NCBI GenBank assembly: GCA_965603475.1
Contig: CBFDDD010000001.1
Coordinates: 111,157-175,156 of the forward strand
DNA length: 64,000 bases
Direction of reading: 5' to 3'
DNA from: an uncultured Myxococcales bacterium
Lineage (GTDB): Bacteria; Myxococcota_A; UBA9160; UBA4427
In this document: positions 19,154-53,340 of the stretch, piece after piece
How the letters are laid out: each line of letters starts with the position of its first letter
How positions within the stretch are numbered: the first letter of the stretch is position 1
Notes under the pieces: generated by a model
Told to the model about the DNA's origin: nothing
The model's input: only the letters and a program-made list of their open reading frames with translations
Databases searched by the model: none
Program-made: the position numbers and the translations under genes

Positions 19154-19400
19154 CAGAAACTCGTTTCGGAGGCAGTGGAAGCGCCGAATCGTTCCTGACA
19201 CGCGGCCGTCGAAACGAGATAGAGCGAGCCTGCGAGCGTAGCCATGCAATCTCCGGAGGTGGCGTCGACGAACTGATCGGCACAGCGGGACTCTGAGCTG
19301 AGGCGAGCTGTACGGGCCGAGGCCTCGTGGCGGGCGATTCTCGCGAGTGCGGGCCGCGGCGCCGAGGCGGAATTTCGTCTGATCTGGACAATCTTCTGTC

Positions 19401-19431
19401 ACTAAACATTTAGTCTTGACTAAATGTTTAT
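19401..19431. promoter_or_regulatory. candidate TetR operator: ACTAAACATTTAGT-CTTG-ACTAAATGTTTAT
   Basis: 12-bp inverted arms TAAACATTTAGT / ACTAAATGTTTA with a 4-bp spacer. Each arm is itself near-palindromic. It sits in the AT-rich gap between the divergent TetR gene and the minus-strand operon. Confidence 0.5.
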
Positions 19432-19451
19432 GTGAAGGCAGACTGCCTGAC

Positions 19452-20153: not shown

Positions 20154-20159
20154 TCAGAA

Positions 20160-21605
20160 ATGGGATCGACCATGCGAAGAATGATTCTGACGGCTGTATT
20201 GCTCGAGTTGGGCTTGTCCCTTCTATTGCTCGGATGCTTCTCGCCCCCGGACCTGCCGATCCCCGCACGCGAAGACGCCATCATTACTGGCGTCACCATC
20301 ATCAACCCTTTGGCAACTCGACTGGCGGATCACAGCATCGTCGTTCGGGACGGATTCATACGGGAAATGCGGCCACGACGCGCGAGCGACCCGGAGCCGA
20401 TCTGTGTCGACTGTTATGCCGTCCCTGGCCTGATCGACGTACACGTTCACACGCCGCCGCGGATCGTGTTGGGCAACCAACAGCTATTCGCGCTCCTCTA
20501 CCTCGCGCATGGCGTGACGACCGTTCGCGACGTGGGTGAATCGGAACCCAGTGTTGCGGAACTGGCGGCTCGTCTCAACGAGGGGAGCATGGTGGGTCCG
20601 CGGATGCTTCGTTGTGGCCCGGTGCTCGACGGTGATCCGCCCGGCTGGCCGGTGGCGGAGGTCGTACCCGACGGTCCCACGGGTCGGCGTATCGTCGATC
20701 GCCTCGCAAAAGACGGAGTCGACTGTATCAAGGTCTACAACGAGCTTTCGCGCGAAGCATTCGATGGGATCGCAGCGGCGGCTCGACGTCACGAGTTGCC
20801 CCTCGTGGGCCACGTGCCCCACGCGGTCGGGCTCGATCACGCGACGGATCTCGAGGTCCAGCACATGACGGGGATCCCCTATCTCTCGCAGCCGCGTCCT
20901 CCCCTTGGTTGGGACATCCGTGATGAAGATGTTCTGTCGCTTCGAGACGATGAGGTCGAGCATGCTCTCGGAGTGGCGCTGACCCGGCGGCTTTCTTTCA
21001 CGCCGACGTTGGCCAACTTCAGCTTGCGCCTGACGGCATCGGATCCAGCACGATTTCCTCCGAGCGTTGCTTCGCGAGTACTACCCGAGTATTGGGCCGA
21101 CGCCTGGGATCTGGTTGCCGGTCACCCTTCTACCCCAGAATCGATCGAACAGCGTCTACGTGCAGTCCCGGCGATGCGCGCGCTCGTCCGTCGTGCCCAC
21201 GAGCGCGGAATCGACGTTCTGGCGGGAACTGACACACTGATGCCGTGGGTTGTACCGGGTGATGCGCTGCATCGTGAAATGCTCGAACTCGAGAAGGCGT
21301 TGGGAAGTACGGAAGCAGCGCTGGCCGCCGCGACCGCAGTGAACGGTCGGCACCTGGCTCCCGGCGAGATCGGTCTGATCGCACCGGGGGCTCGGGCCGA
21401 CATTCTTCTGGTCACTGGGGATCCGACCGAGCGGCTCTCTTCGCTCCGCGACTGGCGGATCGTATTCGCCGACGGTCGTCGCTACGACCGCGAGACGCTC
21501 GACAGATGGCTGGACGACTATCAGCAACATTTTCACAGTTGGTTTCAGCGCTACGTCATGGGCCCGGTTGCGGGTGTCGCCGTCGGCCTGTTCGAGCACA
21601 GCTGA
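20160..21605 (+). CDS. amidohydrolase family lipoprotein
   Basis: Lipobox LLLLGC. Metal-binding LIDVHVHTP. Begins 6 nt after the TetR stop. Confidence 0.8.
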   Translation: MGSTMRRMILTAVLLELGLSLLLLGCFSPPDLPIPAREDAIITGVTIINPLATRLADHSIVVRDGFIREMRPRRASDPEPICVDCYAVPGLIDVHVHTPPRIVLGNQQLFALLYLAHGVTTVRDVGESEPSVAELAARLNEGSMVGPRMLRCGPVLDGDPPGWPVAEVVPDGPTGRRIVDRLAKDGVDCIKVYNELSREAFDGIAAAARRHELPLVGHVPHAVGLDHATDLEVQHMTGIPYLSQPRPPLGWDIRDEDVLSLRDDEVEHALGVALTRRLSFTPTLANFSLRLTASDPARFPPSVASRVLPEYWADAWDLVAGHPSTPESIEQRLRAVPAMRALVRRAHERGIDVLAGTDTLMPWVVPGDALHREMLELEKALGSTEAALAAATAVNGRHLAPGEIGLIAPGARADILLVTGDPTERLSSLRDWRIVFADGRRYDRETLDRWLDDYQQHFHSWFQRYVMGPVAGVAVGLFEHS

Positions 21606-21647
21606 AGCGCGCGCCCCGCGCGTTGACCGCGCGGGGCGCCAACGGCT

Positions 21648-22841
21648 TCATTGCATCTTGCGGTACATCGTCACTACGGCTGCACCGCCCAGGCCCAGGT
21701 TGTGCTGAAGGGCGATCTTGGCACCTTCGACCTGACGCGCGTCGGCTTGACCCCGGAGCTGCCAGCAGAGCTCTGCGCACTGGGCGAGGCCGGTCGCACC
21801 GAGCGGATGGCCCTTCGAGATCAGCCCGCCCGACGGGTTGACCACGACCTTGCCGCCGTAAGTCTGGGCCCCGGCATCGACGAACGCACCACCCTTGCCC
21901 TCTTCGCATAGCCCGAGCGCTTCGTACGTGATCATCTCATTGCAACTGAAACAATCGTGGAGCTCGACGACGTCGACGTTCTCGGGACCGAGACCCGATT
22001 GCTCGTAGACCTTCTGGGCAGCGGCCTTCGAGACGTCCGATCCGACCATTTTGATCATCGACTTTTCGTCGAAGGTGCTCGAGAAGTCTGTAGACATGTG
22101 CTGGCCGAGAATCTCGACGGCCTGGTCTTCGAGGCCATGCGCTCGGACGAAGTCCTCACTTGCGATGATCGCTGCGCCACCGCCGTCCGAGGTGGGACAG
22201 CATTGGAGCTTCGTGAGCGGGCCATAGACCGTGGGTGAGTCCAGGATTTCCTGGAGGCTGTACTCGTCGCGGAACTGGGAGTACGGATTGTTGACCGAGT
22301 GCTTGTGGTTCTTCCAACCGATCTTTGCGAATTGTTCGGCCGTCGTTCCGTAGCGTTCCATGTGTTCGAGGCCGGCATTGCCGAACATCTGGGGCGCGGC
22401 GGGGGCCTTCGCTTCGAAGCCCCGTTCCTCGACCATCACCTTGAAATGCTTGTCCATCGGCATGGTGCGATCGGTGTATTTCACACCGAGGGAGCCCTTT
22501 TCCATTTTTTCGAAGCCCATCGCCATGGTGCATTCGGAGAGGCCACCCTCGACGAATTGCTTGGCCATGAAGAGCGCGGTCGAGCCCGTCGAACAATTGT
22601 TGTTGACGTTGTAGATCGGAATGCCCGTGGTTCCGAGTTCGTAGAACGCGCGCTGGCCGCAAGTCGAATCGCCCGCGCAATAGCCGACCGCGGCCTGTTC
22701 GATGTCGTCGATCTTGAGGCCCGCGTCGGCGAGCGCCTTCTCGCCGGCTTCACGACCCATGTCGGGGTAGTCCCAATCCTTGGAACCGGGTTTTTCGAAT
22801 TTGGTCATACCGACACCGATCACGTACGCCTTGCGACCCAT
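21648..22841 (-). CDS. SCPx-type thiolase / lipid-transfer protein
   Basis: [19 protein letters not shown]... N-terminus and a C-terminal [17 protein letters not shown] thiolase signature. Confidence 0.9.
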
Positions 22842-23970: not shown

Positions 23971-25968
23971 ATGCATAATCGGCCGGTCGGATTGTTTCTT
24001 TTCAGTCTGCTGGCTTGTCTGGTGGGCTGCTCGCCGGCGGAGCTCCCGACGCCGGATCAGCCGGTCCGTTCCGTATCGGAATGGCCCGCTTATGGAGGCG
24101 ATCTCGGCGGGCAGCGCCACGCTGGAACCAGCGTCATTCGTCGAAACAACGTCGCCTCCCTCGGACATGCGTGGACCTATCGCCACGGAGACGTTTCGGG
24201 GAACGACGACGAAATTCCCAGCAGTACGGCCTTCGAGAACACGCCCATTCTCGTCGACGGCACGCTCTACTTCTGTACGCCCTTCAATCGCGTCATAGCG
24301 TTGGATCCGGTGTCGGGTACGGAGAAATGGGTTCACGATCCCGACATCGACATGACCGGCCGCTATGCCAATCAGCTCATCTGTCGTGGAGTGGCGGCGT
24401 GGTTGGATGAACAGTCCGGCCCCGAGTCGTCCTGTCAGCGCACGATCTTTACCGCAACGAACGACGCGCGACTGGTCGCGCTCGATGCCGGGACGGGCAA
24501 GCTCTGTCAGGCCTTCGGCACGAAGGGGGAGGTCGACCTCAACGCCGCTGCGGGTGAGCAAAAGTGGCAGGGTGAATATCAGGTGACCTCGCCGCCCGTC
24601 ATGGTCGGAGATGTCGTTGTGGTCGGCTCTGCTGTGAGCGACAACGCGAGAATCGATGCGCCGAGCGGCGTCGTTCGCGGTTTCGATGCGCGGAGTGGAC
24701 GCCTTCGATGGGCTTGGGACCTGGCTCCCCCCGACTTCGACTACGACAGCGGTCTTGTCAGCGATGCGGGCTACGCGCTGGGCACCCCGAACGTGTGGGC
24801 ACCGATGTCGGTGGACGCCGAGCGTGGGCTGGTCTTCGTTCCGACAGGAAACTCGGCACCGGACTACTACCACGGCGAGCGCAGCAATATGAACTACTAC
24901 GGAAGTTCAGTGGTGGCTCTTCGCGGTGAGAGCGGAGAGGTCGTTTGGCACTTCCAGACGGTGCACAACGATCTCTGGGACTTCGACGTTCCGGCGCAAC
25001 CTACGCTCACGAGCATCGAGATCGATGGTGAGTCACGCCCAGCTCTCGTGCAGGCGACGAAGATGGGGTTGCTCTTCGTGCTGGACCGCGAGACGGGAGA
25101 GCCGCTGCTGGAAGTCGAGGAGCGGCCGGTGACGACCGCGGGTGCCGTTCCGGGCGAAGTGCTTTCAAAGACCCAACCCTTTCCTGCGATCCCGATACTC
25201 GTTCGGGATCAGATCTCACCCGAAGATGCCTGGGGACTGACACCGTGGGACAAGGGCCAATGTCGCGAACTGATCGCGTCCCATCGATTCGACGGAATCT
25301 ACACACCGCCTTCGATCCAGGGCTCGATCATGTATCCGGGCAATGCGGGCGGCTCGAACTGGGGCGGCATCGCGGTTGATCCAGATCGTCAGCTGGCCTT
25401 CGTGAGGAGCTCCGACGTGCCTTGGATCGTTCGTCTCATTCCGCGGGCGGATTTCCAGGCCGAGCGCGAGGCCGATCCGAAGCATGAGTATGGGCCACAG
25501 ATCGGCACACCCTATGGGCTACGTCGTGACATGATGCTGTCCCCGCTCGGTTTGCCCTGCGTTGGACCTCCCTGGGGCACTTTGTCTGCGATTGACCTGC
25601 GCACGGGCGCGATTCGCTGGCAGGTCCCGCATGGAAGTCTCCGCGATCTCGCACCGATTCCGCTTCCTCTCGATTGGGGGATTCCGGGGATCGGGGGGCC
25701 GATCGTGACAGATACGAACATCGTATTCATCGCTGCCGCGATGGATGATTACCTTCGCGCCTTCGACGTGGAGACCGGCGACGAACTCTGGAAGGGGAGG
25801 TTGCCGGCTGGCGGCCAGGCGACCCCGATGAGTTACCGCGTCGAGTTTGAAGATGGCAGTGTCAGGCAGTACGTATTGATTGCGGCGGGTGGGCATTCGC
25901 GTGCCGGAACGCGAATGGGCGACCACCTCGTTGCGTTTGCACTCGACGAGAAGCCGTCTTCGGAATAG
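23971..25968 (+). CDS. PQQ-dependent dehydrogenase (glucose/quinate dehydrogenase family), lipoprotein
   Basis: Lipobox LLACLVGC. Propeller repeats: ENTPILVDGTLYFCTPFNRVIALDPVSGTEKW. GAGGAG RBS. Confidence 0.85.
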   Translation: MHNRPVGLFLFSLLACLVGCSPAELPTPDQPVRSVSEWPAYGGDLGGQRHAGTSVIRRNNVASLGHAWTYRHGDVSGNDDEIPSSTAFENTPILVDGTLYFCTPFNRVIALDPVSGTEKWVHDPDIDMTGRYANQLICRGVAAWLDEQSGPESSCQRTIFTATNDARLVALDAGTGKLCQAFGTKGEVDLNAAAGEQKWQGEYQVTSPPVMVGDVVVVGSAVSDNARIDAPSGVVRGFDARSGRLRWAWDLAPPDFDYDSGLVSDAGYALGTPNVWAPMSVDAERGLVFVPTGNSAPDYYHGERSNMNYYGSSVVALRGESGEVVWHFQTVHNDLWDFDVPAQPTLTSIEIDGESRPALVQATKMGLLFVLDRETGEPLLEVEERPVTTAGAVPGEVLSKTQPFPAIPILVRDQISPEDAWGLTPWDKGQCRELIASHRFDGIYTPPSIQGSIMYPGNAGGSNWGGIAVDPDRQLAFVRSSDVPWIVRLIPRADFQAEREADPKHEYGPQIGTPYGLRRDMMLSPLGLPCVGPPWGTLSAIDLRTGAIRWQVPHGSLRDLAPIPLPLDWGIPGIGGPIVTDTNIVFIAAAMDDYLRAFDVETGDELWKGRLPAGGQATPMSYRVEFEDGSVRQYVLIAAGGHSRAGTRMGDHLVAFALDEKPSSE

Positions 25969-25972: not shown

Positions 25973-26800
25973 CTAGCGCGTCGAACGGGCGATGGCCGAG
26001 AACTGCGCCGCCATTTCCTCGAGTTCGGCATCGAAGGGAATGTCATGGGGTGTGTAGCGGGGTGAGTACGTCCTCAGCAATTTTGGCAAGAGCCCCTTTC
26101 TGAGATCTGGTCCGGCTTCGCGCCGCCGCGCGCGAAGTCCAGCTTCTCCGCCGCAACGCTCGATGGCCTCCGGGTCGGCTTCGAGCATGTATCGCGTCAC
26201 GCGGCGAATGAAGCTTGCCATATGCCACTGCGCGTAGAGCCCCGCAATGAGACGGTAGGCGTAGCCTCCACAGACATGCTCGTAGACGTCGAAGGCAACC
26301 GTTCGATGTTCGAGTTCTTCGACCAGGTGCCATTGGAACAGTGCTCCGACAGACGGATGCATATTGGGGTCGGGACCACGTTCGAAACTGGAACGGGCCA
26401 CGGCAGTCGTGAGCGCCTCGAATCCTTCGGCGTAGGCGAGATTGAAGCGGAGAGAACGGGACTTCGAGAAACGTCGATAGTCGGCGTCCAGGACCTTCTC
26501 GAGTTCAGCGAGTTTTGGGAATCCCTGTAGCCGAATGGCATCGTTGAGGCGTATGTGCTGCCGATAGTGCTGCCCCTCCTGGGCGCTGAAGCGTTCGAGG
26601 TCATCGATCAGTTCGGGGTCGCTGATCTGCTTCTTGGCTTCCTTCATCGTGCGGATGAGGTAGGGCTCGAGGTAGGGAAGCAATAGTGAGAGCCCAATCA
26701 TGATGTAGGACTGCTCTGGATCTCCTGCGACGACGACGGGATCGATGTCGGCCGGAAAATCGAAATCCATCTGACGAACGACGATGGGTTGGTGGCTCAT
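25973..26800 (-). CDS. predicted metal-dependent hydrolase (PF10118-like)
   Basis: MDFDFPADIDP...FSAQEGQHYRQH pattern. ATG 26800 overlaps the upstream stop (ATGA). Confidence 0.7.
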   Translation of the reverse strand: MSHQPIVVRQMDFDFPADIDPVVVAGDPEQSYIMIGLSLLLPYLEPYLIRTMKEAKKQISDPELIDDLERFSAQEGQHYRQHIRLNDAIRLQGFPKLAELEKVLDADYRRFSKSRSLRFNLAYAEGFEALTTAVARSSFERGPDPNMHPSVGALFQWHLVEELEHRTVAFDVYEHVCGGYAYRLIAGLYAQWHMASFIRRVTRYMLEADPEAIERCGGEAGLRARRREAGPDLRKGLLPKLLRTYSPRYTPHDIPFDAELEEMAAQFSAIARSTR

Positions 26801-27663
26801 TCGGACCTCTTCATCTTCTCCCAGACCATCTCGGGCTGGACATCTTCCCCGAGCAGGGATAAAGGGTGTTGCCGATCGACGTGGCCCATCACGTTGCGAT
26901 ACATCGAGTAACCGATCAGTTCCTGGAGTCGTCGCGGATAGCTCGCGACGACATCTCGCGGAGTACCGAGCATCAGATTCTGTTGCTGACGACACCATCC
27001 GGCTACATATTGAATCGAGAGGCCATAACGTTCTACGTTCGAAGTCGAGTTGGGCCCCCCTCCGTGCCACGTCGACGCGTGGAGAACCAATACGCTTCCC
27101 GCCGGCATTTCGGCCATCACGACGGTGTTTTCGTCTTCGGGTTGCGGCACGATCTCGGGCTTCAGATGCGAGCCGGGAATCAGACGCGTCGCACCGTTAT
27201 CCTTTGTGAATTCCGACAGGGCCCATAACGTCGTGACCATCGTGGCCGGATGGGGACGAGGAAGGCTGATCATGCCGTCGTCGGCGTGCAGGAGCTGTTC
27301 GGTTTCTCCCGGACCGATGTGCATGGAAGTCGTGCCCGAAAGGAGGATGTCATCACCCAGGATGGATTCGACCGCGCTCAATATGGTCTCATTGGTGACA
27401 AGGTCCCTGAAGCGCGGGCCACGCGCGATCAGGTTGAAGATTCGTCGAGTCCGAAGGCCTTCGAATTCGTTGTTGCCGAACGCAATATCGAACTCACGCT
27501 CGACGCGATCGACTTCGGCAATGAGGCCTGCGCAAGTCGCCGTGTCGAGGACGTTGGGAATGATCGCGTAACCATGGGCGTCGACGAGCCCCGCGACCTC
27601 CGCTTTGAGATCGGCCGCGTCGGCCGGTACCGTATTCAGGCTGGCGATGTTCTTTGTGGCCAT
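26797..27663 (-). CDS. phytanoyl-CoA dioxygenase (PhyH) family Fe(II)/2OG oxygenase
   Basis: GYAIIPNVL, HxD in LLHADDG, distal His in VLHASTWHGGGPN. Confidence 0.8.
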   Translation of the reverse strand: MATKNIASLNTVPADAADLKAEVAGLVDAHGYAIIPNVLDTATCAGLIAEVDRVEREFDIAFGNNEFEGLRTRRIFNLIARGPRFRDLVTNETILSAVESILGDDILLSGTTSMHIGPGETEQLLHADDGMISLPRPHPATMVTTLWALSEFTKDNGATRLIPGSHLKPEIVPQPEDENTVVMAEMPAGSVLVLHASTWHGGGPNSTSNVERYGLSIQYVAGWCRQQQNLMLGTPRDVVASYPRRLQELIGYSMYRNVMGHVDRQHPLSLLGEDVQPEMVWEKMKRSE

Positions 27664-31198: not shown

Positions 31199-31300
31199 GC
31201 AAATGCTCCGTGCCGCTTCGGGTCGGTCATGGAAGGTCGAGAGTCCTCGCGGCAGCTGGATGCTAGCGTTTCAGGGTTCCATGCTCGGGAGGAGAACCGA

Positions 31301-33181
31301 ATGATCAAAGGTTACGCGGGCCGCGTCCTCGAGATAGACCTGGCAACCCAGCGCTATTCGTTCCAGCCGCTCGACGAAGAGATCGCAAGACTCTACATCG
31401 GCGGCAAGGGCTACGGCACCCGGCTTCTCTACGATCGTACCGAGGCCGGTATCGATCCACTCGGCCCCGAGAATCCGCTGATCTTTGCGACCGGTCCACT
31501 GAATGGTTCCGTGGCGCCTCAGAGCAATCGGTTTGCGGTCGTCTGCAAGAGCCCTCTGACCGGTGGGATCGGCAATGCGACCTGCGGCGGAAACTACGCC
31601 TACGGCATGAAGCGAGCCGGGATCGACATCATCGTCGTCAGCAACCGGTCCGAGCGACCCGTTCGAATCGAAGTCAATGGGGATCGTGACGAGGTCGAGT
31701 TTCTCGACGCCGCGGATCTATGGGGCAAGGGCACCTACGAAACGCAGGAGATTCTCGGCAAGAAGAAAGCCCATGCTGTAATCGGTCCGGCCGGCGAGAA
31801 CCAGGTTCTCTTCGCCGGCATCGTTTCGAACGAGCGGATTGCGGGGCGCACGGGCGTCGGGGCCGTGATGGGATCGAAGCGATTGAAGGCCATCAGCGTG
31901 ACCGGGTCGCGCAAGCTCGAGATGGACGATCCCGAGGCGTTCAAGACGTATACCAAAGAAGTTCGCGAGATGTTCAAGGAACATCCGGTACTCGGAAGTT
32001 CGATGAAGCGCTTTGGGACCGCCGGTATCGTCAACACCACGAATGGGCGCGGCATGCTGCCCACGAAGAATTTTCAGCGCGGACATTTCGATGAGGCGAT
32101 GACGATCTCCGGTGAGTACATGGAGGACCATGAGCTGGTCGGAGTGAAGAGCAGCTGTCTGCACTGCCCTGTGACCTGTGGCCGGGATGTCGAGGTAGAC
32201 GGCAGGCGCGTCAAGGGTCCGGAATACGAAACGGTTGCGTTGATGGGGAGCAATCTCGAGATCGGAGACCTCAAGAAGGTTTCGGAGTGGAATTTCCTTG
32301 CGGATGACCTGGGGATGGACACGATCAGTCTCGGCGTGACGCTGAGCTTTGCGATGGAGCTGCAGGAGCGCGGCATGTTCGATGCGGGTGTTCGCTTTGG
32401 CGATGCCGAGGGCGTGAGCGAATTGATTCGAGATATCGGCCATCGACGTGGTGCAGGCAATGAACTCGCGGACGGCTCGAAAAGGATGAGCGAGCGAATC
32501 GGTGGTCATGAATTTGCCATGCACGTCAAGGGCCTCGAACTTTCGGCCTACGATCCACGAGGTTCCTTCGCCCAGGGTGTCGAATATGCGACAACCAATC
32601 GTGGAGGCTGCCATGTTCAAGGCGCGAGCATGTATCTCGAATCGATCGGTCCGCTCACGATCAATCCGCAGAACCTCAAGCTCAAGGCCGATATTCCAGT
32701 TCTGATGCAGAATACGGCGTGCGCGATCAACTCGATGGTGCTTTGCATCTTTACGACGTATGGAATGTTTCCTGCAGCCATTCACAACATGGATCCGAAA
32801 TCGCTGACGCACCGAATGATGTCGAAGGCCTTCGAGAATTCGGGCCCGATGATGCGAATGGCGATGGGCATGAAGGGCAAGCCGATACTCTGGTTCGAGA
32901 AATGGCTGACCTATATCACGGGGCAGACCTTCTCTTCGGGCCACCTGCAGGAGATCGGCGGTCGGATCTTCAATCTCGAGCGGATGTACAATCTGCGCGA
33001 GGGTTTGACTAGCAAGGACGATACGCTGCCTCCGCGCCTCCTGAATGAATCGATCTACGACAACATGGACGCCGGCCATCCCCTGGCAGAGCTGTTGCCC
33101 CGCTACTACAAGCTGCGAGGCTGGAACGCAGATGGGGTGCCGAACCGCGACACCCTGGACCGACTCCAGATCAGTATCTAA
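31301..33181 (+). CDS. aor: aldehyde:ferredoxin oxidoreductase (tungsto/molybdopterin AOR family)
   Basis: MIKGYAGRVLEIDL start. AOR N-domain. 4Fe-4S ligands CLHCPVTCGR (CxxCxxxC). The C-terminal LPPR...YYKLRGW is typical of AOR. Confidence 0.9.
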   Translation: MIKGYAGRVLEIDLATQRYSFQPLDEEIARLYIGGKGYGTRLLYDRTEAGIDPLGPENPLIFATGPLNGSVAPQSNRFAVVCKSPLTGGIGNATCGGNYAYGMKRAGIDIIVVSNRSERPVRIEVNGDRDEVEFLDAADLWGKGTYETQEILGKKKAHAVIGPAGENQVLFAGIVSNERIAGRTGVGAVMGSKRLKAISVTGSRKLEMDDPEAFKTYTKEVREMFKEHPVLGSSMKRFGTAGIVNTTNGRGMLPTKNFQRGHFDEAMTISGEYMEDHELVGVKSSCLHCPVTCGRDVEVDGRRVKGPEYETVALMGSNLEIGDLKKVSEWNFLADDLGMDTISLGVTLSFAMELQERGMFDAGVRFGDAEGVSELIRDIGHRRGAGNELADGSKRMSERIGGHEFAMHVKGLELSAYDPRGSFAQGVEYATTNRGGCHVQGASMYLESIGPLTINPQNLKLKADIPVLMQNTACAINSMVLCIFTTYGMFPAAIHNMDPKSLTHRMMSKAFENSGPMMRMAMGMKGKPILWFEKWLTYITGQTFSSGHLQEIGGRIFNLERMYNLREGLTSKDDTLPPRLLNESIYDNMDAGHPLAELLPRYYKLRGWNADGVPNRDTLDRLQISI

Positions 33182-33207
33182 CCCGGCATAGACCAGTTGA
33201 GGAACGA

Positions 33208-33471
33208 ATGATGAGTATTCGGGTCGAGTTGACCTACGACATGAGCAAGGCTCTGGGCCTTCAGAGTTTCGACATCGATTCCGCGGCGACCGTGCGAGAC
33301 GTCGTGGAGCAGACCGAGACGCGCTTCGAACGGGGCGATGAATTCTCGAAGCTCGCTCGTCTCGCGGCGATCGCTGTCAACGGTGTACTGGTCAGCCACC
33401 GCAAGGGCATGAAGACCAGGTTGACGGATGGTGATCGAGTGGGGTTCGTGAAGGCTGCGGCCGGCGGATGA
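33208..33471 (+). CDS. MoaD/ThiS-family ubiquitin-like small protein
   Basis: 87 aa ending ...GDRVGFVKAAAGG (C-terminal GG). Lies immediately downstream of aor. Confidence 0.7.
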   Translation: MMSIRVELTYDMSKALGLQSFDIDSAATVRDVVEQTETRFERGDEFSKLARLAAIAVNGVLVSHRKGMKTRLTDGDRVGFVKAAAGG

Positions 33472-34184
33472 GCGATCAAACCGTGTCCAAACGAATCATC
33501 GTCGAGCCGAGCCCGACCGTCAGTCATGCCATCGAAACGCGGCGCTCGGTGCGGGCCTATCTGTCCGATCCGGTCCCCGAGGAGATCGTGCGCGAGATTC
33601 TCTCCTGTGCGAGTCGCGCCGCGTCTGGAGGAAACCTCCAGCCGTGGAAGGTGAGTGTGCTTGCGGGCGAGGTGCGTGATGCTTTCGTGAATACAGTCGC
33701 CGAGCGAATGAAAGAAACCCCTTTCGGCGAAGGCCAGGAGTATGCGATCTATCCTGCCGATCTGGAGGAGCCCTATCGAGGGCGTCGATTCAAGGTCGCG
33801 ATGGACATGTACGGTCTGGTTGGAATCGAGCGTGCCGACAAAGTGGCGCGGGCACAACAAATGGCGTTGAATTTTTCGTTCTTCGGCGCGCCGGTGGGCA
33901 TGTTCATCAGCATCGACCGCAAAATGGGGCCACCACAGTTTGCCGACCTGGGAATTTTTCTCCAGAACGTGATGCTCCTTGCGCGTGAGCGCGGACTGCA
34001 TACCTGCGCTCAGGAAGCTTGGTCGACCTGGGGGAAATCGATTCGAGAGTTCACGAGCATCGGAGAGGACGAGATGGTGTTTTGCGGCGTGGCTCTTGGC
34101 TATGCGGATCCCGACGCCGTGATCAATGATCTCTATACGGAACGTGCGTCGGTAGACGAGTTCGCTCAATTTCAAGGGTTCTGA
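33468..34184 (+). CDS. nitroreductase family flavoprotein
   Basis: RRSVRAYLSDPVPEEIVREIL...ASGGNLQPW pattern. ATGA overlap with the MoaD-like gene. Confidence 0.8.
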   Translation: MSDQTVSKRIIVEPSPTVSHAIETRRSVRAYLSDPVPEEIVREILSCASRAASGGNLQPWKVSVLAGEVRDAFVNTVAERMKETPFGEGQEYAIYPADLEEPYRGRRFKVAMDMYGLVGIERADKVARAQQMALNFSFFGAPVGMFISIDRKMGPPQFADLGIFLQNVMLLARERGLHTCAQEAWSTWGKSIREFTSIGEDEMVFCGVALGYADPDAVINDLYTERASVDEFAQFQGF

Positions 34185-37299: not shown

Positions 37300-38625
37300 T
37301 TATCCCTCGTCGACGCCCTTGGGCGCTTGCTGCTTCATGAATCCGAACATGTAGCCCGCCACACGACGCATCTGGATTTCTTCCGCGCCCTCTGTGATGC
37401 GATATCGGCGGTGGTGACGGTAGATGTGTTCGAAGGGCTTGTGACGCGAATAGCCGAGCCCCCCGTGGACCTGCATTGCGCGATCCGCCGCGTTACAGCA
37501 GAGCCGATTCGACCAGTAATTACACATCGAGACCTTGTCCGAGACCGAGAATGCGCCGTACTCGTCCATCATCCAGGCCGTCTTGTGAATTAGAGCGCGC
37601 AACATTTCACACTGGGTCTGTAGCTCGACGAGTGGGAATTGAATGGCCTGATTGGTGGCCAATGGTTTGCCAAAGGGCTTGCGAACCTGGGCATACTCGA
37701 CAGACTGATCGATGCAGAACTGGGCGGCACCGAGGCTCGAGGCCGCCTGGCGGATTCGGTTTTCGTTGAAGAAGTGCTGCACGACGGCAAGCCCCCGGCC
37801 TTCGCCGCCGAAGATCGCGTCGTCCGGGACCACGACGTCGGTGAACGACACCCGGCCGTGGTCCGTTGGCATGTTGAAGGTCCAGAGCATTTCTTCGATC
37901 TTTACGCCCGGCGCATCCATCGGTACCAGGAAGGCCGTGATTCCTCGGCCATCGCCCGCCTTACCACTCGTTCGAGCCATGACCATGTCGTACTTGGCCT
38001 TGTGGATCCCGGTATTCCAGGTTTTCTCGCCGTTGATGCGCCAGCTGTCGCCCTCGCGTACAGCGACCGTCTCCATATGTGTGGCATCGGAGCCATGCTC
38101 GGGTTCGGTGATTCCGAAGGCAAAGCCGCGCTGGCCTGTTGCCATGGCGTCGACCCATTCGGCCTGTTGGGCCTCGGTCCCGTACTCGAGCATCAACAGC
38201 AGGCCCACGTTGTTGCCTACGATCGAATGTTCGTTCTGGAGGTCATTGTGAAGTCCGAGGCCGCGACGTGCCAGATGCTCGCGAATGATCGCCATGCCGA
38301 GGTTGTTCCCATCGCGTCCGCCGTATTTCTTGGCGAGGGGATAGCGAAAATGTCCGGCCGCATCGGCAAGTCGTCGCGCCTCCGCAAGGAGCGCCTCCCA
38401 TACTTCGTTGGGAAGCCCGCCTCGCTCCCAATCGGTGCGCGCATCTTCGCGGCGATGATCGAAGAAGCGGATATTGTCGTCCTGTTGTTCGAGGGGCAGG
38501 ATTTCACGCTCGATAAAGGCATCGAGTTCATCGAGGTAGGCTGCGAGGTCTTTGGGGATGTCGAAATTCAAGGGGATGTCCTTCTGGTTGACGGGCTTCC
38601 GGGTGGTGGAATCGGCGTTAGGCAT
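37300..38625 (-). CDS. acyl-CoA dehydrogenase family protein
   Basis: 441 aa ACAD fold. Catalytic context RITEGAEEIQ. Confidence 0.9.
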   Translation of the reverse strand: MPNADSTTRKPVNQKDIPLNFDIPKDLAAYLDELDAFIEREILPLEQQDDNIRFFDHRREDARTDWERGGLPNEVWEALLAEARRLADAAGHFRYPLAKKYGGRDGNNLGMAIIREHLARRGLGLHNDLQNEHSIVGNNVGLLLMLEYGTEAQQAEWVDAMATGQRGFAFGITEPEHGSDATHMETVAVREGDSWRINGEKTWNTGIHKAKYDMVMARTSGKAGDGRGITAFLVPMDAPGVKIEEMLWTFNMPTDHGRVSFTDVVVPDDAIFGGEGRGLAVVQHFFNENRIRQAASSLGAAQFCIDQSVEYAQVRKPFGKPLATNQAIQFPLVELQTQCEMLRALIHKTAWMMDEYGAFSVSDKVSMCNYWSNRLCCNAADRAMQVHGGLGYSRHKPFEHIYRHHRRYRITEGAEEIQMRRVAGYMFGFMKQQAPKGVDEG

Positions 38626-38742
38626 CTTCCGGGCGATTTCGTGAGAATTCTACCACGCCTGGCGCTCTGGTCTGATGGAATCTCTCTTCGGTCCCGCTAC
38701 CCGCCATCTGCTATCCATTCTGTACTCTCAGGAGGCCGCCTG

Positions 38743-39645
38743 ATGCCCGATTCACCGATTACGCACCGCAGCTTCGTTTCCTACATCGATCGTACCCGTG
38801 AGTACTATGCAGCACAGGGCTACGAAAGGCCCTACCGCTGGGCACACCATGCGTCCGTTCCCTTTGCGAAACTCGAGAAACCCCTCGCCGAGTCGCGTGT
38901 CGCGGTCGTCACGACCGCGAGCCCATTCGTCGATCCGGCTGCGCGCGAAGATGTCGTCGGCGACGGCAAGCAGGTCTGGTCGGGTGAAACCGCCGTCACA
39001 CCGGATCGGCTCTACACCGATGATCTCGCATGGGACAAGGAAACCACACACACCAACGACGTAGAATCCTTCGTTCCGCTCGGTTCTCTGCGCGCGTTCG
39101 TCAGGGAGGGTCGCATCGGATCGCTCGCCAAACGCTTCCACGGTGTGCCGACGGACTACAGCCAGCGTCGTACCCTCGAACAAGACGCGCCAGAGATCCT
39201 CGCCCGATGCCGAGAGGACGCGGTCGATATCGCACTGCTCGTCCCGCTCTGACCCGTCTGTCACCAGACCGTGAGTCTGGTCGCACGCGTATTGGAAGAG
39301 AACGGCATCCCGACCGTCGTCGTCGGCTCCGCACGCGACATTGTGGAAGAGTGCGGCGTTCCACGTTTCCTCTTCACTGATTTTCCGCTCGGAAACCCGT
39401 GTGGCAAGCCAGACGACGGCATGATGCAGCGCGACATAGTCGGCTACGCGTTCGATCTTCTCGAAACGGCTCGCCTTCCCCGGACGACCGTACAGACACC
39501 GTTCATCTGGGGGGAAGACGCTTCATGGAAGGAACGTTACGCGCGGGTCGACGCGGAGGCTTCTGAGCGCCTTCGCCAGGCCGGCAATGCGAGGCGCGTT
39601 GAGCAGGAACACGCGAAAGCGACAGGCCGCGCCCGATCGACGTAG
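38743..39645 (+). CDS. glycine/sarcosine/betaine/D-proline reductase selenoprotein B (GRDB) family protein, Sec at codon 170
   Basis: AGGAGG RBS before ATG 38743. The tail of track ORF 37639..39252 and ORF 39271..39645 share a frame and are joined by TGA 39250-39252. Reads ...DAVDIALLVPL-U-PVCHQTVSLVARVLEENGIPTVVVG...FPLGNPCGKP, collinear with the GrdB Sec region. Confidence 0.8.
39263..39281 (+). promoter_or_regulatory. putative bacterial SECIS hairpin for the GrdB-like gene
   Basis: ACCAGAC-CGUGA-GUCUGGU: 7-bp stem, GU in the loop, starting 10 nt after the UGA. Confidence 0.6.
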
Positions 39646-39719: not shown

Positions 39720-42188
39720 GTGATGCCCGACGTCGATTTTCGATCCGAATCCAAGTCCAAGGTCATGGCCCCGCGTCATGAAGAGCCCGTCTGGCCGGAG
39801 ACGGCAGGCGGGGACGTCGTTTTCCTGATCGACGCAGCCAGTCGCTTCGAGACCAGACTCCTGCATGCCTGGATCGCGCGCCATCGTGCGGATTCCGCCG
39901 CTTCCGGCGCGAAGGTGGAGATCTTGACGCTTCCATCCTCACGTCGTCGACGTGGACGCCTGGATCCCGGATTGGAACCGATCCTGGCTTCGGGGGATGA
40001 TCCGCAGTTGGTGCCGCTGCGCATTGCGTGGCTCGCCCCCGAACGAGAGGGCCGCCGCGAAGTCAGGCCTTCGGACTTGTTGACCCTGGCGGATCCGCGA
40101 GATCCGGACCGACTCCGCGAGCGCTACCTCTATTGGCGGACGCCCGAACGTTGTCGGATCGTGTTGGGGCAGTCAGCACCTGTTTCGGCGGTGCGCAGGC
40201 GTTGGCGTCGGGCGGCTGGAGCGGATTCGGGTAACACGCAGAGCTTCCCCGACTACGTTGCGCGGCAGGCCGCGTTGACACTGGAGCGAGCCGAACGACA
40301 CATACGCGGTGCGCGCTACAAGGTGCCCAGCCTGGTTCGCGAGGACATCCTCGCGAGGCCCGCATTTCAGGGTGAGCTCCATCATCTGGCCCGCAAATTG
40401 GGTCGGACTGATGCGAGAGTGTTGGTTGAAGCGACAGCGGATCTTCGTGAGATCGCGGCTGGCCATACGCCGCTCGCGATCGACATCGTCGTCCGGCTCT
40501 GGCGCTTCATGTATTCCCGCGGCTACGACGAAAAGCTCCGTTACGATCCTGCCGAGCTACGAGTCGTGAGCGCGCTCGCGCAACAGCATCCGGTCGTTTT
40601 TCTGCCGTCACACAAATCAAACCTCGACCATGGCGTGCTGCAAACGATCCTGCACGAAAATGGCATGCCGCCCAATCATACGGCCGGCGGAATCAACATG
40701 AATTTCTTTCCGCTCGGACCGCTCGTGCGGCGGAGTGGGATCTTCTTCATTCGGCGTAGCTTCAAGGACGACGAGGTCTACAAGCTCGTCCTGCGTCACT
40801 ACGTCGACTATCTGATCTCGAAGCGTTTTCCTCTCGAGTGGTATATCGAAGGGGGTCGCTCCCGATCCGGCAAACTCCTGCCGCCGCGCTTCGGCTTGTT
40901 GGCGTACGTGGTCGATGCCTATCAGCGAGGGCATAGCGACGATGTCTATCTCGTGCCGGTCTCGATCTGTTACGACCAGATCTCCGATGTCTCCGACTAC
41001 GTCGCGGAGCAGCGCGGAGGCGACAAGGAGAGCGAGGGGTTTGGCTGGTTCGTTCGTTTCATTCGCAGGCTGGGGCGGCGTTACGGGCGGATCAATATTC
41101 GCTTCGGAGAGCCGGTCTCGCTGGCCACGTCGCTGGGGCCCCCGAATCCGGAGGCCTTGCCCGATCCGAACGAGATGAATGTCGAATTACAGAAGCTGGC
41201 TTTCGAAGTCTGTGTCCGAATCAATCGGGCTACGCCGATTACGCCGGTCTCGCTGATTTGCCTGGCCTTGTTGAGTCGGGGAGATCGCGCACTCACTCGA
41301 ACGGATATGGTCGATGCGCTCGTGAACCTGCGGGGCTACGTGGAGCGTCGTAAGCTTCCGACGTCGGAGGAACTCGACCTGGATACGGCCGAGGGTGTCG
41401 CGCGAACGATGGACGCGTTGGTCGAGAGCGGTCTACTGACGATCTACGACGAGGGCCCGGAACCCGTGTATGGAATTGCGTCGGGTCAGCATCTGGGCGC
41501 CGCCTACTACCGAAACACCATCATCCACTATTTCCTGACGGGCGCGATCGCCGAAGTTTCCCTGCTCCGTGCGGCCGAAAAGGACGTAGAGGACAGGTCG
41601 GCGGCGTTCTGGGAAGCGGCTCTGGACTTACGGGATCTCCTCAAGTTCGAGTTCTTCTTCGCAGAGAAGGACGTCTTCCAGGCGGAGATTCGTCGGGAGC
41701 TCAGCCATCACGTCGTGGACTGGGAGGCGCGACTCGACGAGGGCGCAGAGGCGATTCAGGAAATATTCATCCGCATCAGCCCACTCCACGCTCATCGAGT
41801 GCTTCGCCCCTTCCTCGAGGCCTACCGCGTGGTGGGCGATGTACTGGAATCTCACGACACGGGGGAACCGATCGACGAAGCGGCATTCCTTTCGGAATGC
41901 CTGGGACTCGGCCATCAGTACACGCTACAGCGCCACATCAAGCGACAAGAATCGGTTTCAAAGGTGCTCTTCGGGACTGCCGTCAAACTCGCGCGCAATC
42001 GCGAACTCTGGGAGCCTGGTGAGTCGAAACAGGAGCTGAAAGACGCACGCAGGCGCTTCGCAGTGGAGATACGTGCTGCGATCCGCCGTGTCGACGCCGT
42101 CGAGGCGATGGTTCGAGCGCGTCTAGCGGGTCTCGCCCCCCCGGCCGCATCGGTCGCGACGAGTCGGAAGAACCCGACGGACACCTGA
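39720..42188 (+). CDS. plsB: glycerol-3-phosphate 1-O-acyltransferase PlsB
   Basis: About 820 aa. Acyltransferase HX4D block VFLPSHKSNLDH, plus FFIRRSF and YIEGGRSRSGK motifs. Confidence 0.9.
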   Translation: MMPDVDFRSESKSKVMAPRHEEPVWPETAGGDVVFLIDAASRFETRLLHAWIARHRADSAASGAKVEILTLPSSRRRRGRLDPGLEPILASGDDPQLVPLRIAWLAPEREGRREVRPSDLLTLADPRDPDRLRERYLYWRTPERCRIVLGQSAPVSAVRRRWRRAAGADSGNTQSFPDYVARQAALTLERAERHIRGARYKVPSLVREDILARPAFQGELHHLARKLGRTDARVLVEATADLREIAAGHTPLAIDIVVRLWRFMYSRGYDEKLRYDPAELRVVSALAQQHPVVFLPSHKSNLDHGVLQTILHENGMPPNHTAGGINMNFFPLGPLVRRSGIFFIRRSFKDDEVYKLVLRHYVDYLISKRFPLEWYIEGGRSRSGKLLPPRFGLLAYVVDAYQRGHSDDVYLVPVSICYDQISDVSDYVAEQRGGDKESEGFGWFVRFIRRLGRRYGRINIRFGEPVSLATSLGPPNPEALPDPNEMNVELQKLAFEVCVRINRATPITPVSLICLALLSRGDRALTRTDMVDALVNLRGYVERRKLPTSEELDLDTAEGVARTMDALVESGLLTIYDEGPEPVYGIASGQHLGAAYYRNTIIHYFLTGAIAEVSLLRAAEKDVEDRSAAFWEAALDLRDLLKFEFFFAEKDVFQAEIRRELSHHVVDWEARLDEGAEAIQEIFIRISPLHAHRVLRPFLEAYRVVGDVLESHDTGEPIDEAAFLSECLGLGHQYTLQRHIKRQESVSKVLFGTAVKLARNRELWEPGESKQELKDARRRFAVEIRAAIRRVDAVEAMVRARLAGLAPPAASVATSRKNPTDT

Positions 42189-52134: not shown

Positions 52135-53340
52135 ATGTCCGTGGATCTACGAACGCGTTCGGATACCGACCAGGCTCCGGTCGACGTCGGGCCATTCTTT
52201 CGTGAAACCCTGCCAGGGCTGCTCGACGTCAACCATTCAATGCTTGCGTCGGGCGCGAGCGAACTGTCGCTCGACGCGTTCTGCATCGAGACGGACGGCG
52301 AGCCCTGGACGCTATCCTGGATCGGAGACCGCGTTTCGGTTTCGCCGGGGCACGACGGTCAGGGCCGGGTACGGCTGACCGCCGAGCAGCTCTCCGACAT
52401 CGTGAACGACCAGAGTACGCCGATTGCCCTGATGAGCAACGCGATCCTGGATATGCCGGAGGGCGGCCTGCCGGACTTCCTGAACTGGTGGCTGGTACTC
52501 CGTTCGGTGATCGACGCTCGTCCGATTCACGCACGCGGCGATGTGAGATTCAAAACGGACGTTCGTCGGAGCTTCACACTGGACGATTCCGATGAGGAGA
52601 TGCGCGCGTTTCTCGAGGACGCGGGCTACCTGCACATCAAAGGTCTTTTCAGCCGGGCCGAGATGGCGGAGGTCGAAGCGGATTTTCCAGTTGCCGCACC
52701 GCACTTCGAGAAGGGTGACCCGAAGGCGTGGTTCGCAACGACACGGGATGGAGTCGAGCATCTGGTGCGCATGGAGGGCTTCGATCGATATTCGCCGGCG
52801 ACCGTGGCTCTGATCGACGAGGATCGCTTCCAACGCATCGGAGACATCCCTGGAATTGGACACGTCAGTGCACGCAAGCCGGGTGCTCGCGTCGGCGCGC
52901 TGAGCAAGCCCATCGGTGTTGTGAAGGGCATCTCTGATGTGCCTTGGCACAAGGACTGCAGCCTGGGTCGTCATTCCTATGAGTGCTGCTCCCTCACGGT
53001 CGGCATCTCAGTGACGGGTGCGGATGCGGAATCGGGACAACTGCGCGTGGTGCCGGGATCCCACCGCGCGCTGGTATGGCCGGCACCGTGTATCCAGCCT
53101 GGCCTCGACCTGGAAGCGATCGATCTACCCACTCGAACGGGCGACGTGACCGTCCATCTGAGCTGCACACAACATATGAGTCAGGCGCCGAGCGTTCGAA
53201 CGCGCAAGGTGCTCTACACGGGGTTCGGTCAAAAGCCCGCCGATGCCGAAGCGGCCCAGCGAAATCGTCTGCGCCTCGATGCCGTTCGCAGCAAGACCCA
53301 TACGAGGGTTTCACAGGAGCCCGGCTATCAGGGCGAATGA
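52135..53340 (+). CDS. PhyH-family dioxygenase with N-terminal extension (SCP2-like?)
   Basis: GYLHIKGLFS, PWHKD (HxD), VVPGSHR. Confidence 0.7.
   Translation: MSVDLRTRSDTDQAPVDVGPFFRETLPGLLDVNHSMLASGASELSLDAFCIETDGEPWTLSWIGDRVSVSPGHDGQGRVRLTAEQLSDIVNDQSTPIALMSNAILDMPEGGLPDFLNWWLVLRSVIDARPIHARGDVRFKTDVRRSFTLDDSDEEMRAFLEDAGYLHIKGLFSRAEMAEVEADFPVAAPHFEKGDPKAWFATTRDGVEHLVRMEGFDRYSPATVALIDEDRFQRIGDIPGIGHVSARKPGARVGALSKPIGVVKGISDVPWHKDCSLGRHSYECCSLTVGISVTGADAESGQLRVVPGSHRALVWPAPCIQPGLDLEAIDLPTRTGDVTVHLSCTQHMSQAPSVRTRKVLYTGFGQKPADAEAAQRNRLRLDAVRSKTHTRVSQEPGYQGE

Follow-up and report, generated by a model that had tools for sequence, protein, structure and literature searches.

Within the 64,000-nucleotide stretch of DNA analysed here (the window), the listed ORF 37639–39252 ends at a TGA triplet and, after six sense codons (39253–39270), a second listed ORF opens in the same frame with GTG at 39271. 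This locus raises the question of whether the TGA terminates a protein or is read as selenocysteine (Sec) and, in the latter case, what kind of protein is produced. The initial annotation had joined both ORFs into one gene for a selenoprotein of the GrdB family standing apart from its usual partners, and every coordinate it gave was correct when checked against the sequence. The comparisons described below indicate that 38743–39645 is one real gene in which the in-frame UGA almost certainly serves as a Sec codon; the affiliation of the protein had to be revised.

Reading frame across the UGA codon

One frame runs from ATG 38743 through the TGA to the TAG at 39643–39645 (Table 1), and the N-termini of the homologues (MPDSPITH) correspond to this ATG. 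As the homologues begin at its equivalent and the preceding part of the first listed ORF overlaps the acyl-CoA dehydrogenase (ACAD) gene of the minus strand, that part is non-coding. The fusion of the two ORFs into one gene agrees with the close relatives, where both halves are in frame, and with the Cys-containing homologues, which are unbroken, about 291 aa long and collinear with the 300-codon product. Of the 120 best database matches, 117 have Cys in the column of UGA170, within the sequence C-P-V-C-H-Q, and across over 5,000 homologues of full length this column is the first Cys of the same invariant motif, all six positions of which (C170, P171, V172, C173, H174 and Q175) are invariant in the family alignments. 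The UGA thus occupies the Sec/Cys position of a UxxC arrangement, as had been proposed from the window alone.

Table 1. Features of the selenoprotein locus and its surroundings (window coordinates)
Feature	Position	Strand	Remarks
Non-coding upstream part of listed ORF 37639..39252	37639..38742	+	antisense shadow of the ACAD gene
Acyl-CoA dehydrogenase (ACAD) gene, divergent	37300..38625	-	context, not shown as a partner; Pfam domains in syntenic L001
Shine-Dalgarno-like AGGAGG	38730..38735	+	7 nt before ATG 38743; direct sequence reading
PrdB-like selenoprotein CDS (very probable)	38743..39645	+	300 codons including Sec170; stop TAG 39643–39645; translation
UGA codon 170, probably read as Sec	39250..39252	+	first position of the U-P-V-C-H-Q motif
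Candidate SECIS lower stem (interrupted helix)	39255..39289	+	weakly supported; in the minimum-energy fold
Cys173 codon TGT	39259..39261	+	predicted resolving Cys of the UxxC pair; invariant column C173
Putative SECIS apical hairpin	39263..39281	+	7-bp stem starting 10 nt past the UGA; arms ACCAGAC (39263–39269) and GUCUGGU (39275–39281), loop CGUGA (39270–39274)
plsB-type glycerol-3-phosphate acyltransferase gene	39720..42188	+	context; Pfam Acyltransferase and GPAT_C in syntenic L001

The same TGA is present in seven contigs (L001–L007) assembled from different samples and encoding proteins of 94–96% identity, as well as in every one of the at least 120 genome loci listed, the hosts of which are scattered over many phyla and include Alpha-, Beta-, Gamma- and Deltaproteobacteria, Myxococcota, Acidimicrobiia, Dehalococcoidia, Methylomirabilota, Rokubacteria, Binatia and two cultured strains. 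The identity of the triplet in independent assemblies speaks against an assembly error. Comparison of the close relatives indicates that the 130 codons downstream of the TGA are under purifying selection, the divergence being mostly synonymous and confined largely to third positions on both sides of the triplet; past the TGA the window differs from contig L003 by 15 synonymous and five non-synonymous codon changes, with 16 of the 21 base changes in the third position.

If the TGA were a true stop, whether through decay to a pseudogene, through a nonsense mutation or through faulty assembly, the two ORFs would be remnants or two separate small proteins. Gene callers do cut the gene into ORFs of 169 aa and 117/124 aa, TGA is the most frequent ordinary stop in the window (21 of the 42 genes) and a GTG stands six codons past it. 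This GTG, however, has no ribosome-binding site and lies inside the loop of an RNA hairpin, the Cys homologues are single polypeptides, and neither the persistence of the TGA in at least 120 species-level genomes nor the synonymous-dominated divergence continuing beyond it, nor the covariation of a hairpin specific to the Sec forms (see below), would be expected of a broken gene. The conserved TGA, the purifying selection and the covarying hairpin effectively refute a true stop in any of these forms, which appears scarcely credible to us. The use of TGA as the ordinary stop in half of the window genes also speaks against a global reassignment of the codon, and a scan of the window for other coding-like frames interrupted by a single TGA yielded none beyond shadow frames and adjacent genes.

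The RNA hairpin downstream of the UGA

A bacterial SECIS element, as exemplified by E. coli fdhF, is a hairpin located within the coding sequence some 10–11 nt past the UGA and carrying G and U in its apical loop. The 7-bp hairpin noted in the initial annotation is present as described and resembles the fdhF type in its position 10 nt past the UGA, in its size and in the G-U-G of the loop. It departs from that type in the loop sequence CGUGA and in the poor conservation of the lower stem, where among 114 distinct Sec sequences the pairs 8-38, 11-35 and 12-34 are well kept and the others are found in less than half; in addition, no SECIS or other RNA family of Rfam was matched in the whole window at gathering thresholds or in the UGA region at permissive E-values. 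In the single window sequence the hairpin folds no better than shuffled versions (z = -0.01), so its significance rests on the comparative data.

The comparison was made between Sec forms from species genomes and Cys forms mostly from soil metagenomes, which are different collections, and the pattern used to select both sets fixes part of the 5' arm of the hairpin; with these limits, all seven pairs are formed in 87 of 117 Sec forms and in only five of 118 Cys forms (p = 1e-31), the mean hairpin energies being -8.5 and -3.7 kcal/mol, respectively (p = 8e-29). Synonymous codons that build the hairpin are fixed in the Sec forms only: ACC for Thr (97% of Sec against 55% of Cys forms), GUG for Val (93% against 29%), AGU for Ser (83% against 10%) and YUG for Leu (100% against 57%). 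The third base of the His codon is associated with its partner base in the Sec forms (p = 6e-20) and not in the Cys forms (p = 0.76). Compensatory pairs occur among the Sec forms (CG 75 and UA 30; GC 100 and AU 9), the covariation score of 0.148, compared with 0.116 in shuffles, was reached by none of 500 shuffles, and 84% of the cells are paired, as opposed to 23–42% when the 3' partners are slid. By these alignments, the hairpin is kept only in the UGA-containing members of the family, and it is kept with compensatory changes.

The conservation of the loop nucleotides at synonymous sites (in the ACC and GUG codons) points to recognition by a sequence-specific protein. It bears on another explanation, according to which the UGA is decoded without the canonical SelB–Sec route, through near-cognate read-through with Trp or Cys or through insertion of Cys by the Sec machinery, the hairpin being a general stimulator of read-through or a selenium-responsive expression switch. 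Such loop conservation is not expected of a mere roadblock, and the position, size and G-U-G loop of the hairpin fit the bacterial SECIS pattern. The passages on this family in two SECIS-based surveys likewise accept it as a selenoprotein (PMC1088965, PMC2398784). What could be adduced in favour of non-canonical decoding is that Cys serves at position 170 in thousands of homologues and that the Sec machinery did not turn up in the DNA searched: selA, selB, selC and selD were not found in the 64-kb window or in 1.66 Mb of other, unrelated loci, and neither tRNA-Sec (sought with ARAGORN) nor SelD (sought with a query sequence) turned up in any of the retrieved DNA. On balance we consider decoding of this kind very unlikely. 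Under the preferred Sec decoding, SelB–GTP–Sec-tRNA(Sec) bound to the hairpin would deliver Sec to the ribosome halted at the UGA, by analogy with the E. coli fdhF model, and a shortage of selenium or SelB would yield a truncated product of 169 residues.

Relation to proline and glycine reductases

The family has been present in selenoprotein surveys since 2005, so the observation of a Sec codon in it is correct and not new. The Sargasso Sea selenoproteome of that year, as far as its entries for the family go, files it as 'Proline reductase PrdB', with one entry under 'GrdB', and ranks it third in abundance with 42 Sec genes and one Cys homologue (PMC1088965); the corresponding part of the GOS selenoproteome of 2008 counts 235 Sec and 110 Cys sequences under the name 'Proline reductase PrdB' (PMC2398784). 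Both place it among the most abundant marine selenoproteins and, in the passages that concern it, treat it as D-proline reductase with no mention of the missing PrdA partner (PMC1088965, PMC2398784). In the GOS supplement the sequence PVCHQ occurs 86 times, at least two of the occurrences standing under '#Proline reductase'. The Sargasso entry AACY01093821 is 60% identical to the window protein over 176 residues and has the same LLVPL-U-PVCHQTV motif, while in AACY01202822, the one labelled 'GrdB', the same TGA is followed by CCCGTCTGCCACCAGACCGTGAGTCTGGTTGCC, which is the same hairpin (DNA past the TGA: CCCGTCTGCCACCAGACCGTGAGTCTGG). The window gene belongs to the same family as these marine genes; only its host and setting differ. 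Our literature search retrieved no paper that sets the family apart from PrdB or characterises it, and database annotations of its relatives read 'D-proline reductase (dithiol) PrdB' or 'glycine reductase'.

Membership in the GrdB family, as the protein was initially classified, stands only in the sense of homology within the selenoprotein B superfamily. The Pfam GRDB model (PF07355) gave 17.5 bits, under its cut-off of 22, and TIGR01918 and TIGR01917 gave 39.2 and 33.9 bits, below their cut-offs of 65.45 and 602. The GrdB-family matches have E-values of 1e-8 to 1e-10 and are confined to model positions of about 200–430, the Pfam match stopping at position 344 of 347, which is residue 166, just ahead of the UGA. 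GrdB, GrdF and GrdH share the UxxC motif with the window protein, but the latter lacks the N-terminal half of some 200 residues of GrdB, which is about 430 residues long. The GrdB motif has been described as UxxCxxC (PMC13188914), whereas the window motif, U-P-V-C-H-Q-T, has no third Cys.

The protein is nearer to PrdB. The PrdB model TIGR04483 matches it with 85.6 bits (E = 3.3e-24), not reaching the curated equivalog cut-off of 300 bits, and alignment of the family with genuine PrdB by hhalign (99.7%, E = 8e-27, 208 columns, 28% identity) covers the full PrdB length and sets LCPVCHQT opposite GCGTCHRS. The U/C-x-x-C-H motif corresponds residue for residue, UGA170 being aligned with the first Cys of the PrdB CGTCH motif and Cys173 with its invariant C154; Cys variants occur in both families, and the segment P-R-x-x-x-x-x-x-P-x-G-x-x-x-G-x-P followed by MQ is common to them. 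From the PrdB of Clostridia it differs in several respects. PrdB has 241 aa and the window protein 300, with an additional N-terminus of about 40 residues and a C-terminal helix; the invariant M-G-G-G-G loop of PrdB is replaced by V-P-T-E-Y-S-Q-R-K and its SHGG-D-N-DVNKD segment by W-D-K-E-x-T-H-T-x-D, both replacements being invariant in the family; and PrdB is encoded in a prd operon, in contrast to the window gene, the hosts of which are aerobic.

The genomic surroundings bear out the earlier impression of a gene without partners. No grd or prd partner genes were detected within 10 kb in the syntenic contig L001 or among the window ORFs scanned, and grdA/E/C/D and thioredoxin genes of the kind found in GrdB clusters are absent both near the window gene and from the related loci. 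A survey of the orthologues extended this result: the 122 Sec loci contained neither prdA or grd partners nor any conserved neighbour family, clustering of all their ORFs having given no partner family represented in over 15 loci. The Pfam-annotated neighbours of three Cys-form loci had no member in common, and about 240 loci lacked a conserved neighbour of any kind.

One may still suppose that the gene encodes a genuine PrdB, or a B subunit of glycine or betaine reductase, whose prdA/prdC or grdA/E/C/D partners reside elsewhere in the genome. The clear homology with an aligned UxxCH motif, the annotation of the relatives and the marine literature, in the sections that place the family under PrdB, are in line with this supposition, but it has to contend with the low scores against TIGR04483, TIGR01918 and PF07355, the substitution of both characteristic PrdB segments, the want of a conserved neighbour in any of the loci and the provenance of the hosts, which are soil and ocean aerobes. 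The window itself encodes a PQQ dehydrogenase, TauD/PhyH dioxygenases and ACADs, confirming the aerobic, fatty-acid-degrading background initially suggested, and in such hosts Stickland fermentation is not expected. We therefore regard a genuine PrdB or GrdB subunit as improbable. Given the scores below the cut-offs, the absence of the GGGG loop and the lack of prdA/grd partners at the loci, the protein is, as far as sequence can tell, a stand-alone relative of PrdB and not a D-proline or glycine reductase.

Possible role and hosts of the protein

With considerable confidence we assign 38743–39645 as the gene for a stand-alone PrdB-like selenoprotein of about 33 kDa, in which Sec would be decoded as proposed above and would have a redox function. 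A structure model was obtained from a Cys orthologue, P0002, 58% identical to the window protein; it has a pLDDT of 86 and places a strand at 160–164, the Cys at 167 and a helix at 168–183 (P0002 numbering). This model and the homology to PrdB suggest that Sec170 caps the N-terminus of a helix following a beta-strand and may act as the nucleophile, that Cys173 may resolve the resulting adduct to form a selenenyl-sulfide, and that the latter may be re-reduced by a cellular dithiol such as thioredoxin. A sequence-profile search of the PDB gave no match at E <= 10, and Foldseek with the P0002 model found nothing below E = 1e-3, just generic Rossmann-like resemblances, so no function can be transferred from structure.

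The substrate is probably not D-proline bound to pyruvoyl-PrdA, as no such partner is present in the neighbourhood and the glycine-rich loop of PrdB is replaced. Our best guess, held with low confidence, is the reduction of some activated carboxylate or acyl compound; it is prompted by adenylate-forming ligases fused or adjacent to family members and by neighbours acting on acyl-CoA. Three proteins (P0128, P0130 and P0131) join the family domain to adenylate-forming ligases, and in five loci (L039, L099, L153, L185 and L068) the gene immediately upstream is of the AMP-binding type. A sister subfamily and about 4% of the loci show ligase fusion or adjacency. Among about 120 Sec loci, an ACAD gene is located within 8 kb in 13–15 and is the immediate neighbour in about five, but these neighbours may simply mirror ACAD-rich genomes, since the window alone encodes three ACADs. 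The plsB-type gene is on the same strand 74 nt downstream of the selenoprotein gene, with no terminator-like site found between the two; this adjacency is restricted to the closest relatives L001 and L002, the other 240 loci all lacking it. That the family represents a self-contained aerobic Sec/Cys enzyme performing a new reduction of a ligase-activated carboxylate or acyl substrate, and no subunit of a proline or glycine reductase, is a tentative idea that we consider possible though doubtful.

The host genome has about 60% GC, and its closest named relatives are Myxococcota and 'Deltaproteobacteria' MAGs (72–74% identity). This Myxococcota-like aerobe is one more host of a selenoprotein family that ranks with the most abundant of ocean and soil. 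For annotation, the finding means that a single selenoprotein gene with a recoded UGA should take the place of the two listed ORFs, and hundreds of split public protein entries call for the same merging, many representatives of the family clusters stopping at the Sec position or starting just past it. The label 'PrdB' has been carried for twenty years, yet the tests of PrdB membership failed and no PrdA partner is present at the loci. The question of the substrate is not first opened by the window gene, but it is tractable, since the Sec form exists in the cultured Enhydrobacter aerosaccus ATCC 27094 (locus L088; LLVPT-U-PVCHQTVSLTAR) and Cys forms in cultured Bradyrhizobium. Complete chromosomes also bear the Sec form, an example being NZ_OZ257251.1 of a Reyranella sp. 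MAG (locus L014). If the tentative reading outlined above were true, a selenoprotein ranking among the most abundant in the environment would be a mis-annotated enzyme of novel chemistry.

Reading frame and the in-frame UGA

The initial annotation had joined the 3′ part of one listed ORF (37639..39252) and a second ORF (39271..39645) into a single gene with an in-frame UGA, and the AGGAGG, ATG, TGA, six intervening codons, GTG, TAG and inverted repeat that it described were all present at the positions collected in the table. The long 5′ part of the first ORF, opposite the acyl-CoA dehydrogenase gene, is non-coding.

Features of the window around and beyond the PrdB-like gene
Feature	Position	Strand	Remark
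SorAB-like pair	4279-6221	-	sulfite-oxidase-like molybdoenzyme and cytochrome c
Beta-oxidation-type cluster	14892-22841		enoyl-CoA hydratase, two acyl-CoA dehydrogenases, alpha/beta hydrolase, TetR regulator, amidohydrolase, thiolase
PQQ-dependent dehydrogenase	23971-25968
PhyH dioxygenases	26797-27663 and 52135-53340
Aldehyde:ferredoxin oxidoreductase (AFOR_N/AFOR_C), then ThiS-like and nitroreductase genes	31229-34184		Pfam, via syntenic L001 (a close relative)
Acyl-CoA dehydrogenase gene, divergent	37300-38625	-	opposite 5′ part of ORF 37639..39252
AGGAGG	38730-38735	+	read from sequence
ATG start, PrdB-like gene	38743	+	sequence; closest database relatives begin MPDSPITH, the same ATG
In-frame TGA	39250-39252	+	read from sequence
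Inverted repeat ACCAGAC/CGUGA/GUCUGGU	39263-39281	+	begins 10 nt past UGA
GTG opening second ORF	39271	+	six sense codons after TGA, in frame
TAG stop	39643-39645	+	read from sequence

A database search returned more than 5,400 homologues of the read-through protein, the full-length ones having about 291 residues, and alignment bore out the proposed Cys/Sec column at codon 170, with Cys at the TGA column in 117 of the 120 best matches, inside an invariant C-P-V-C-H-Q motif. Two clusters come closest, at 96% and 94% identity; each has 169 residues and ends at the TGA codon. Their DNA, present on seven contigs from different samples and assemblers, carries in every case the TGA, an open frame and the equivalent stop. 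In the three lineages compared, divergence 3′ of the TGA resembles that 5′ of it, being mainly synonymous and at third positions; downstream of the TGA, 15 codon changes between the window and L003, another close relative, are synonymous and 5 non-synonymous, and 16 of the 21 altered bases are at third positions. Such a pattern rules out both an assembly error and a recent pseudogene. As an ordinary stop, TGA is used more often in the window than either of the others (21 of 42 genes), and the genetic code is therefore the standard one. The segment 38743-39645 is one gene, in which UGA almost certainly encodes selenocysteine.

The hairpin downstream of the UGA

Taken alone, the inverted repeat of the window showed no folding excess over shuffles (z = -0.01), and no Rfam family matched its region. 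We compared 117 Sec-form sequences (TGA at the codon-170 column) with 118 Cys-form sequences (a Cys codon there) obtained from metagenome contigs by an analogous pattern; the sets stem from separate collections, and both search patterns constrain part of the 5′ arm, so that the contrast depends on the unconstrained 3′ arm and the degenerate positions. The 7-bp hairpin of the initial annotation proved to be maintained in the Sec forms.

Hairpin properties in Sec and Cys forms
Property	Sec	Cys	p
All seven stem pairs	87/117	5/118	1e-31
At least 6 stem pairs	113/117	44/118
Thr codon ACC	97%	55%
Val codon GUG	93%	29%
Ser codon AGU	83%	10% (AGC 71%)
Leu codon YUG	100%	57%
Mean hairpin energy, kcal/mol	-8.5	-3.7	8e-29

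Compensatory change is seen at two stem pairs among the Sec forms (C-G 75, U-A 30; G-C 100, A-U 9), the C-G/U-A pair coupling a synonymous change of the His codon to a Val/Ile replacement (p = 6e-20 in Sec forms, p = 0.76 in Cys forms). The loop CGUGA occurs in 94 of 117 Sec forms, its bases falling at synonymous positions. The covariation score from pair counts was reached by none of 500 shuffles, and paired cells fall from 84% to 23-42% when the 3′ partners are slid. The Sec-versus-Cys comparison is decisive for the significance of the hairpin. Good support is confined to the 7-bp apical helix and does not extend to the lower stem in the minimum-energy fold of the window sequence. Its position, size and G/U-containing loop presumably fit a bacterial SECIS of the E. 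coli fdhF type.

Relation to PrdB and to published selenoproteomes

Assignment to the GrdB family stood as regards homology but not as regards the nearest family: the closest NCBIfam model is PrdB (TIGR04483, E = 3.3e-24, 85.6 bits against a cut-off of 300), GrdH, GrdF and GrdB being more distant, and the Pfam GRDB score is 17.5 against 22 bits. A second NCBIfam score was 39.2 against 65.45 bits, and all NCBIfam scores lie far under the curated cut-offs. Against a profile of genuine PrdB (proteins from Clostridium sporogenes/botulinum, Spiroplasma and Caldicellulosiruptor), the family profile aligned with a probability of 99.7% (E = 8e-27, 208 columns, 28% identity). The family's L-C-P-V-C-H-Q-T aligns with G-C-G-T-C-H-R-S of PrdB, which puts the UGA at the Sec/Cys site of PrdB's UxxC motif, where it had been placed initially. 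The invariant M-G-G-G-G loop and SHGG-D-N-DVNKD segment of PrdB are replaced in the family, which has its own invariant segments V-P-T-E-Y-S-Q-R-K and W-D-K-E-x-T-H-T-x-D, and the PrdB-like protein has about 40 extra N-terminal residues and a C-terminal helix. Judged by model score, these segments and the lack of prd genes nearby, the family departs from PrdB, which argues that the customary label is wrong.

A confident AlphaFold model (pLDDT 86), available for a Cys orthologue with 58% identity, has the first Cys capping the N-terminus of a helix that immediately follows a beta-strand, as is usual for a redox-active CxxC. No solved structure was similar to the family by sequence or to this model by fold. 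The initial observation and its interpretation were correct: a single gene, with a UGA that almost certainly encodes selenocysteine, specifies a stand-alone relative of PrdB/GrdB.

In the 2005 Sargasso Sea selenoproteome (PMC1088965) 'Proline reductase PrdB' ranks third in abundance among selenoprotein families; it has a UxxC motif, 42 Sec genes and a single Cys homologue. Entries of the supplement have the motif of the window protein, among them AACY01093821 with 60% identity to it over 176 residues, and AACY01202822, the sole 'glycine reductase selenoprotein B' of that set, is a PrdB-like family member with U-PVCHQTVSLVARHLEAN and the window's hairpin after the TGA (PMC1088965), so that published GrdB and PrdB counts in aerobic marine samples probably describe this orphan family. 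The 2008 GOS study counts 235 Sec and 110 Cys sequences, and PVCHQ occurs 86 times in its supplement, two sampled occurrences standing under '#Proline reductase' (PMC2398784). Later reviews file the family under 'D-proline reductase'; our literature search found no paper separating it from true PrdB or characterising it. The window gene adds a member to a family that has been listed among predicted selenoproteins for two decades, and its surprise value is accordingly modest.

Distribution, neighbourhood and possible links to acyl metabolism

A DNA pattern for TGA-Pro-Val-Cys-His-Gln-Thr-Val, searched against one genome per species, matched at least 120 loci, and 120 of 120 were true family members conserved on both sides of the TGA. 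Hosts among the matches listed include Alpha-, Beta-, Gamma- and Deltaproteobacteria, Myxococcota, Acidimicrobiia, Dehalococcoidia, Methylomirabilota, Rokubacteria, Binatia and others, with Enhydrobacter aerosaccus ATCC 27094 and Rhodospirillaceae bacterium CCH5-H10 as cultured carriers; among named relatives, Myxococcota/'Deltaproteobacteria' MAGs come closest to the window protein (72-74% identity). Several single MAGs hold two different Sec-containing copies on separate contigs (L040/L050, L029/L077, L052/L098, L015/L093), so one genome can contain paralogous selenoprotein copies. Loci L021, L090 and L098 represent a divergent subfamily (...VSV-PPLSS-ARPPRQVIRRLNIGAT-GRP) whose C-terminus is shorter. 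Among the representatives of 50%-identity clusters, many stop at profile position 157 (about 160-175 aa) or begin at positions 160-165 (about 115-135 aa), so that split halves of Sec-form genes are numerous in public protein sets.

The window shares its gene order here with L001: CoA transferase, YhhN, aldehyde:ferredoxin oxidoreductase, ThiS-like, nitroreductase, HAD, TauD, ABA4-like, PNPOx-like, divergent acyl-CoA dehydrogenase, PrdB-like gene, plsB, CBS protein and formate-tetrahydrofolate ligase. The grd, prd and thioredoxin-system genes, initially noted as missing nearby, were absent from the 64-kb window, as were sel genes and tRNA. Any given neighbouring family occurs in at most 15 of the 122 Sec loci, nothing is common to three Cys-form loci whose neighbours are annotated, and plsB adjacency is restricted to the closest relatives; the gene is therefore typically solitary. 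The aerobic, fatty-acid-degrading background proposed earlier agrees with the PQQ dehydrogenase, PhyH dioxygenases, luciferase-like monooxygenase, sulfite-oxidase-like molybdoenzyme with cytochrome c, and beta-oxidation enzymes elsewhere in the window, and the beta-oxidation cluster, PQQ-dependent dehydrogenase and PhyH dioxygenases support a lifestyle on lipid or alkane-derived substrates. The aldehyde:ferredoxin oxidoreductase is of the tungsten type usually associated with anaerobes, here amid an otherwise aerobic gene set.

A SorAB-like pair also lies in L248, a Bradyrhizobium Cys-form locus (2844-4632), about 1.4 kb upstream of the homologue with one MFS gene between; since the window's pair is 33 kb from the gene, this is probably coincidence. 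At 6001-8183 of L248 the Cys-form gene, preceded by the MFS transporter gene, overlaps a downstream 436-residue TPR-like gene by 4 bases, an arrangement that may be a lineage-specific operon.

In 13-15 Sec loci an acyl-CoA dehydrogenase gene is no more than 8 kb away, and in about five it is the immediate neighbour; with AMP-binding ligases these enzymes make up two recurrent, weak links. Three distinct 50%-identity clusters (P0128, P0130 with 805 residues, P0131) have a complete AMP-binding (adenylate-forming) ligase fused N-terminally to a Cys-form PrdB-like domain, and a ligase gene stands directly upstream on the same strand at L039, L099, L153, L185 and L068, two of these five being Sec forms. 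Fusion and adjacency point to a possible functional link to carboxylate activation, and the ligase fusions offer a testable lead on the function of the PrdB-like family.
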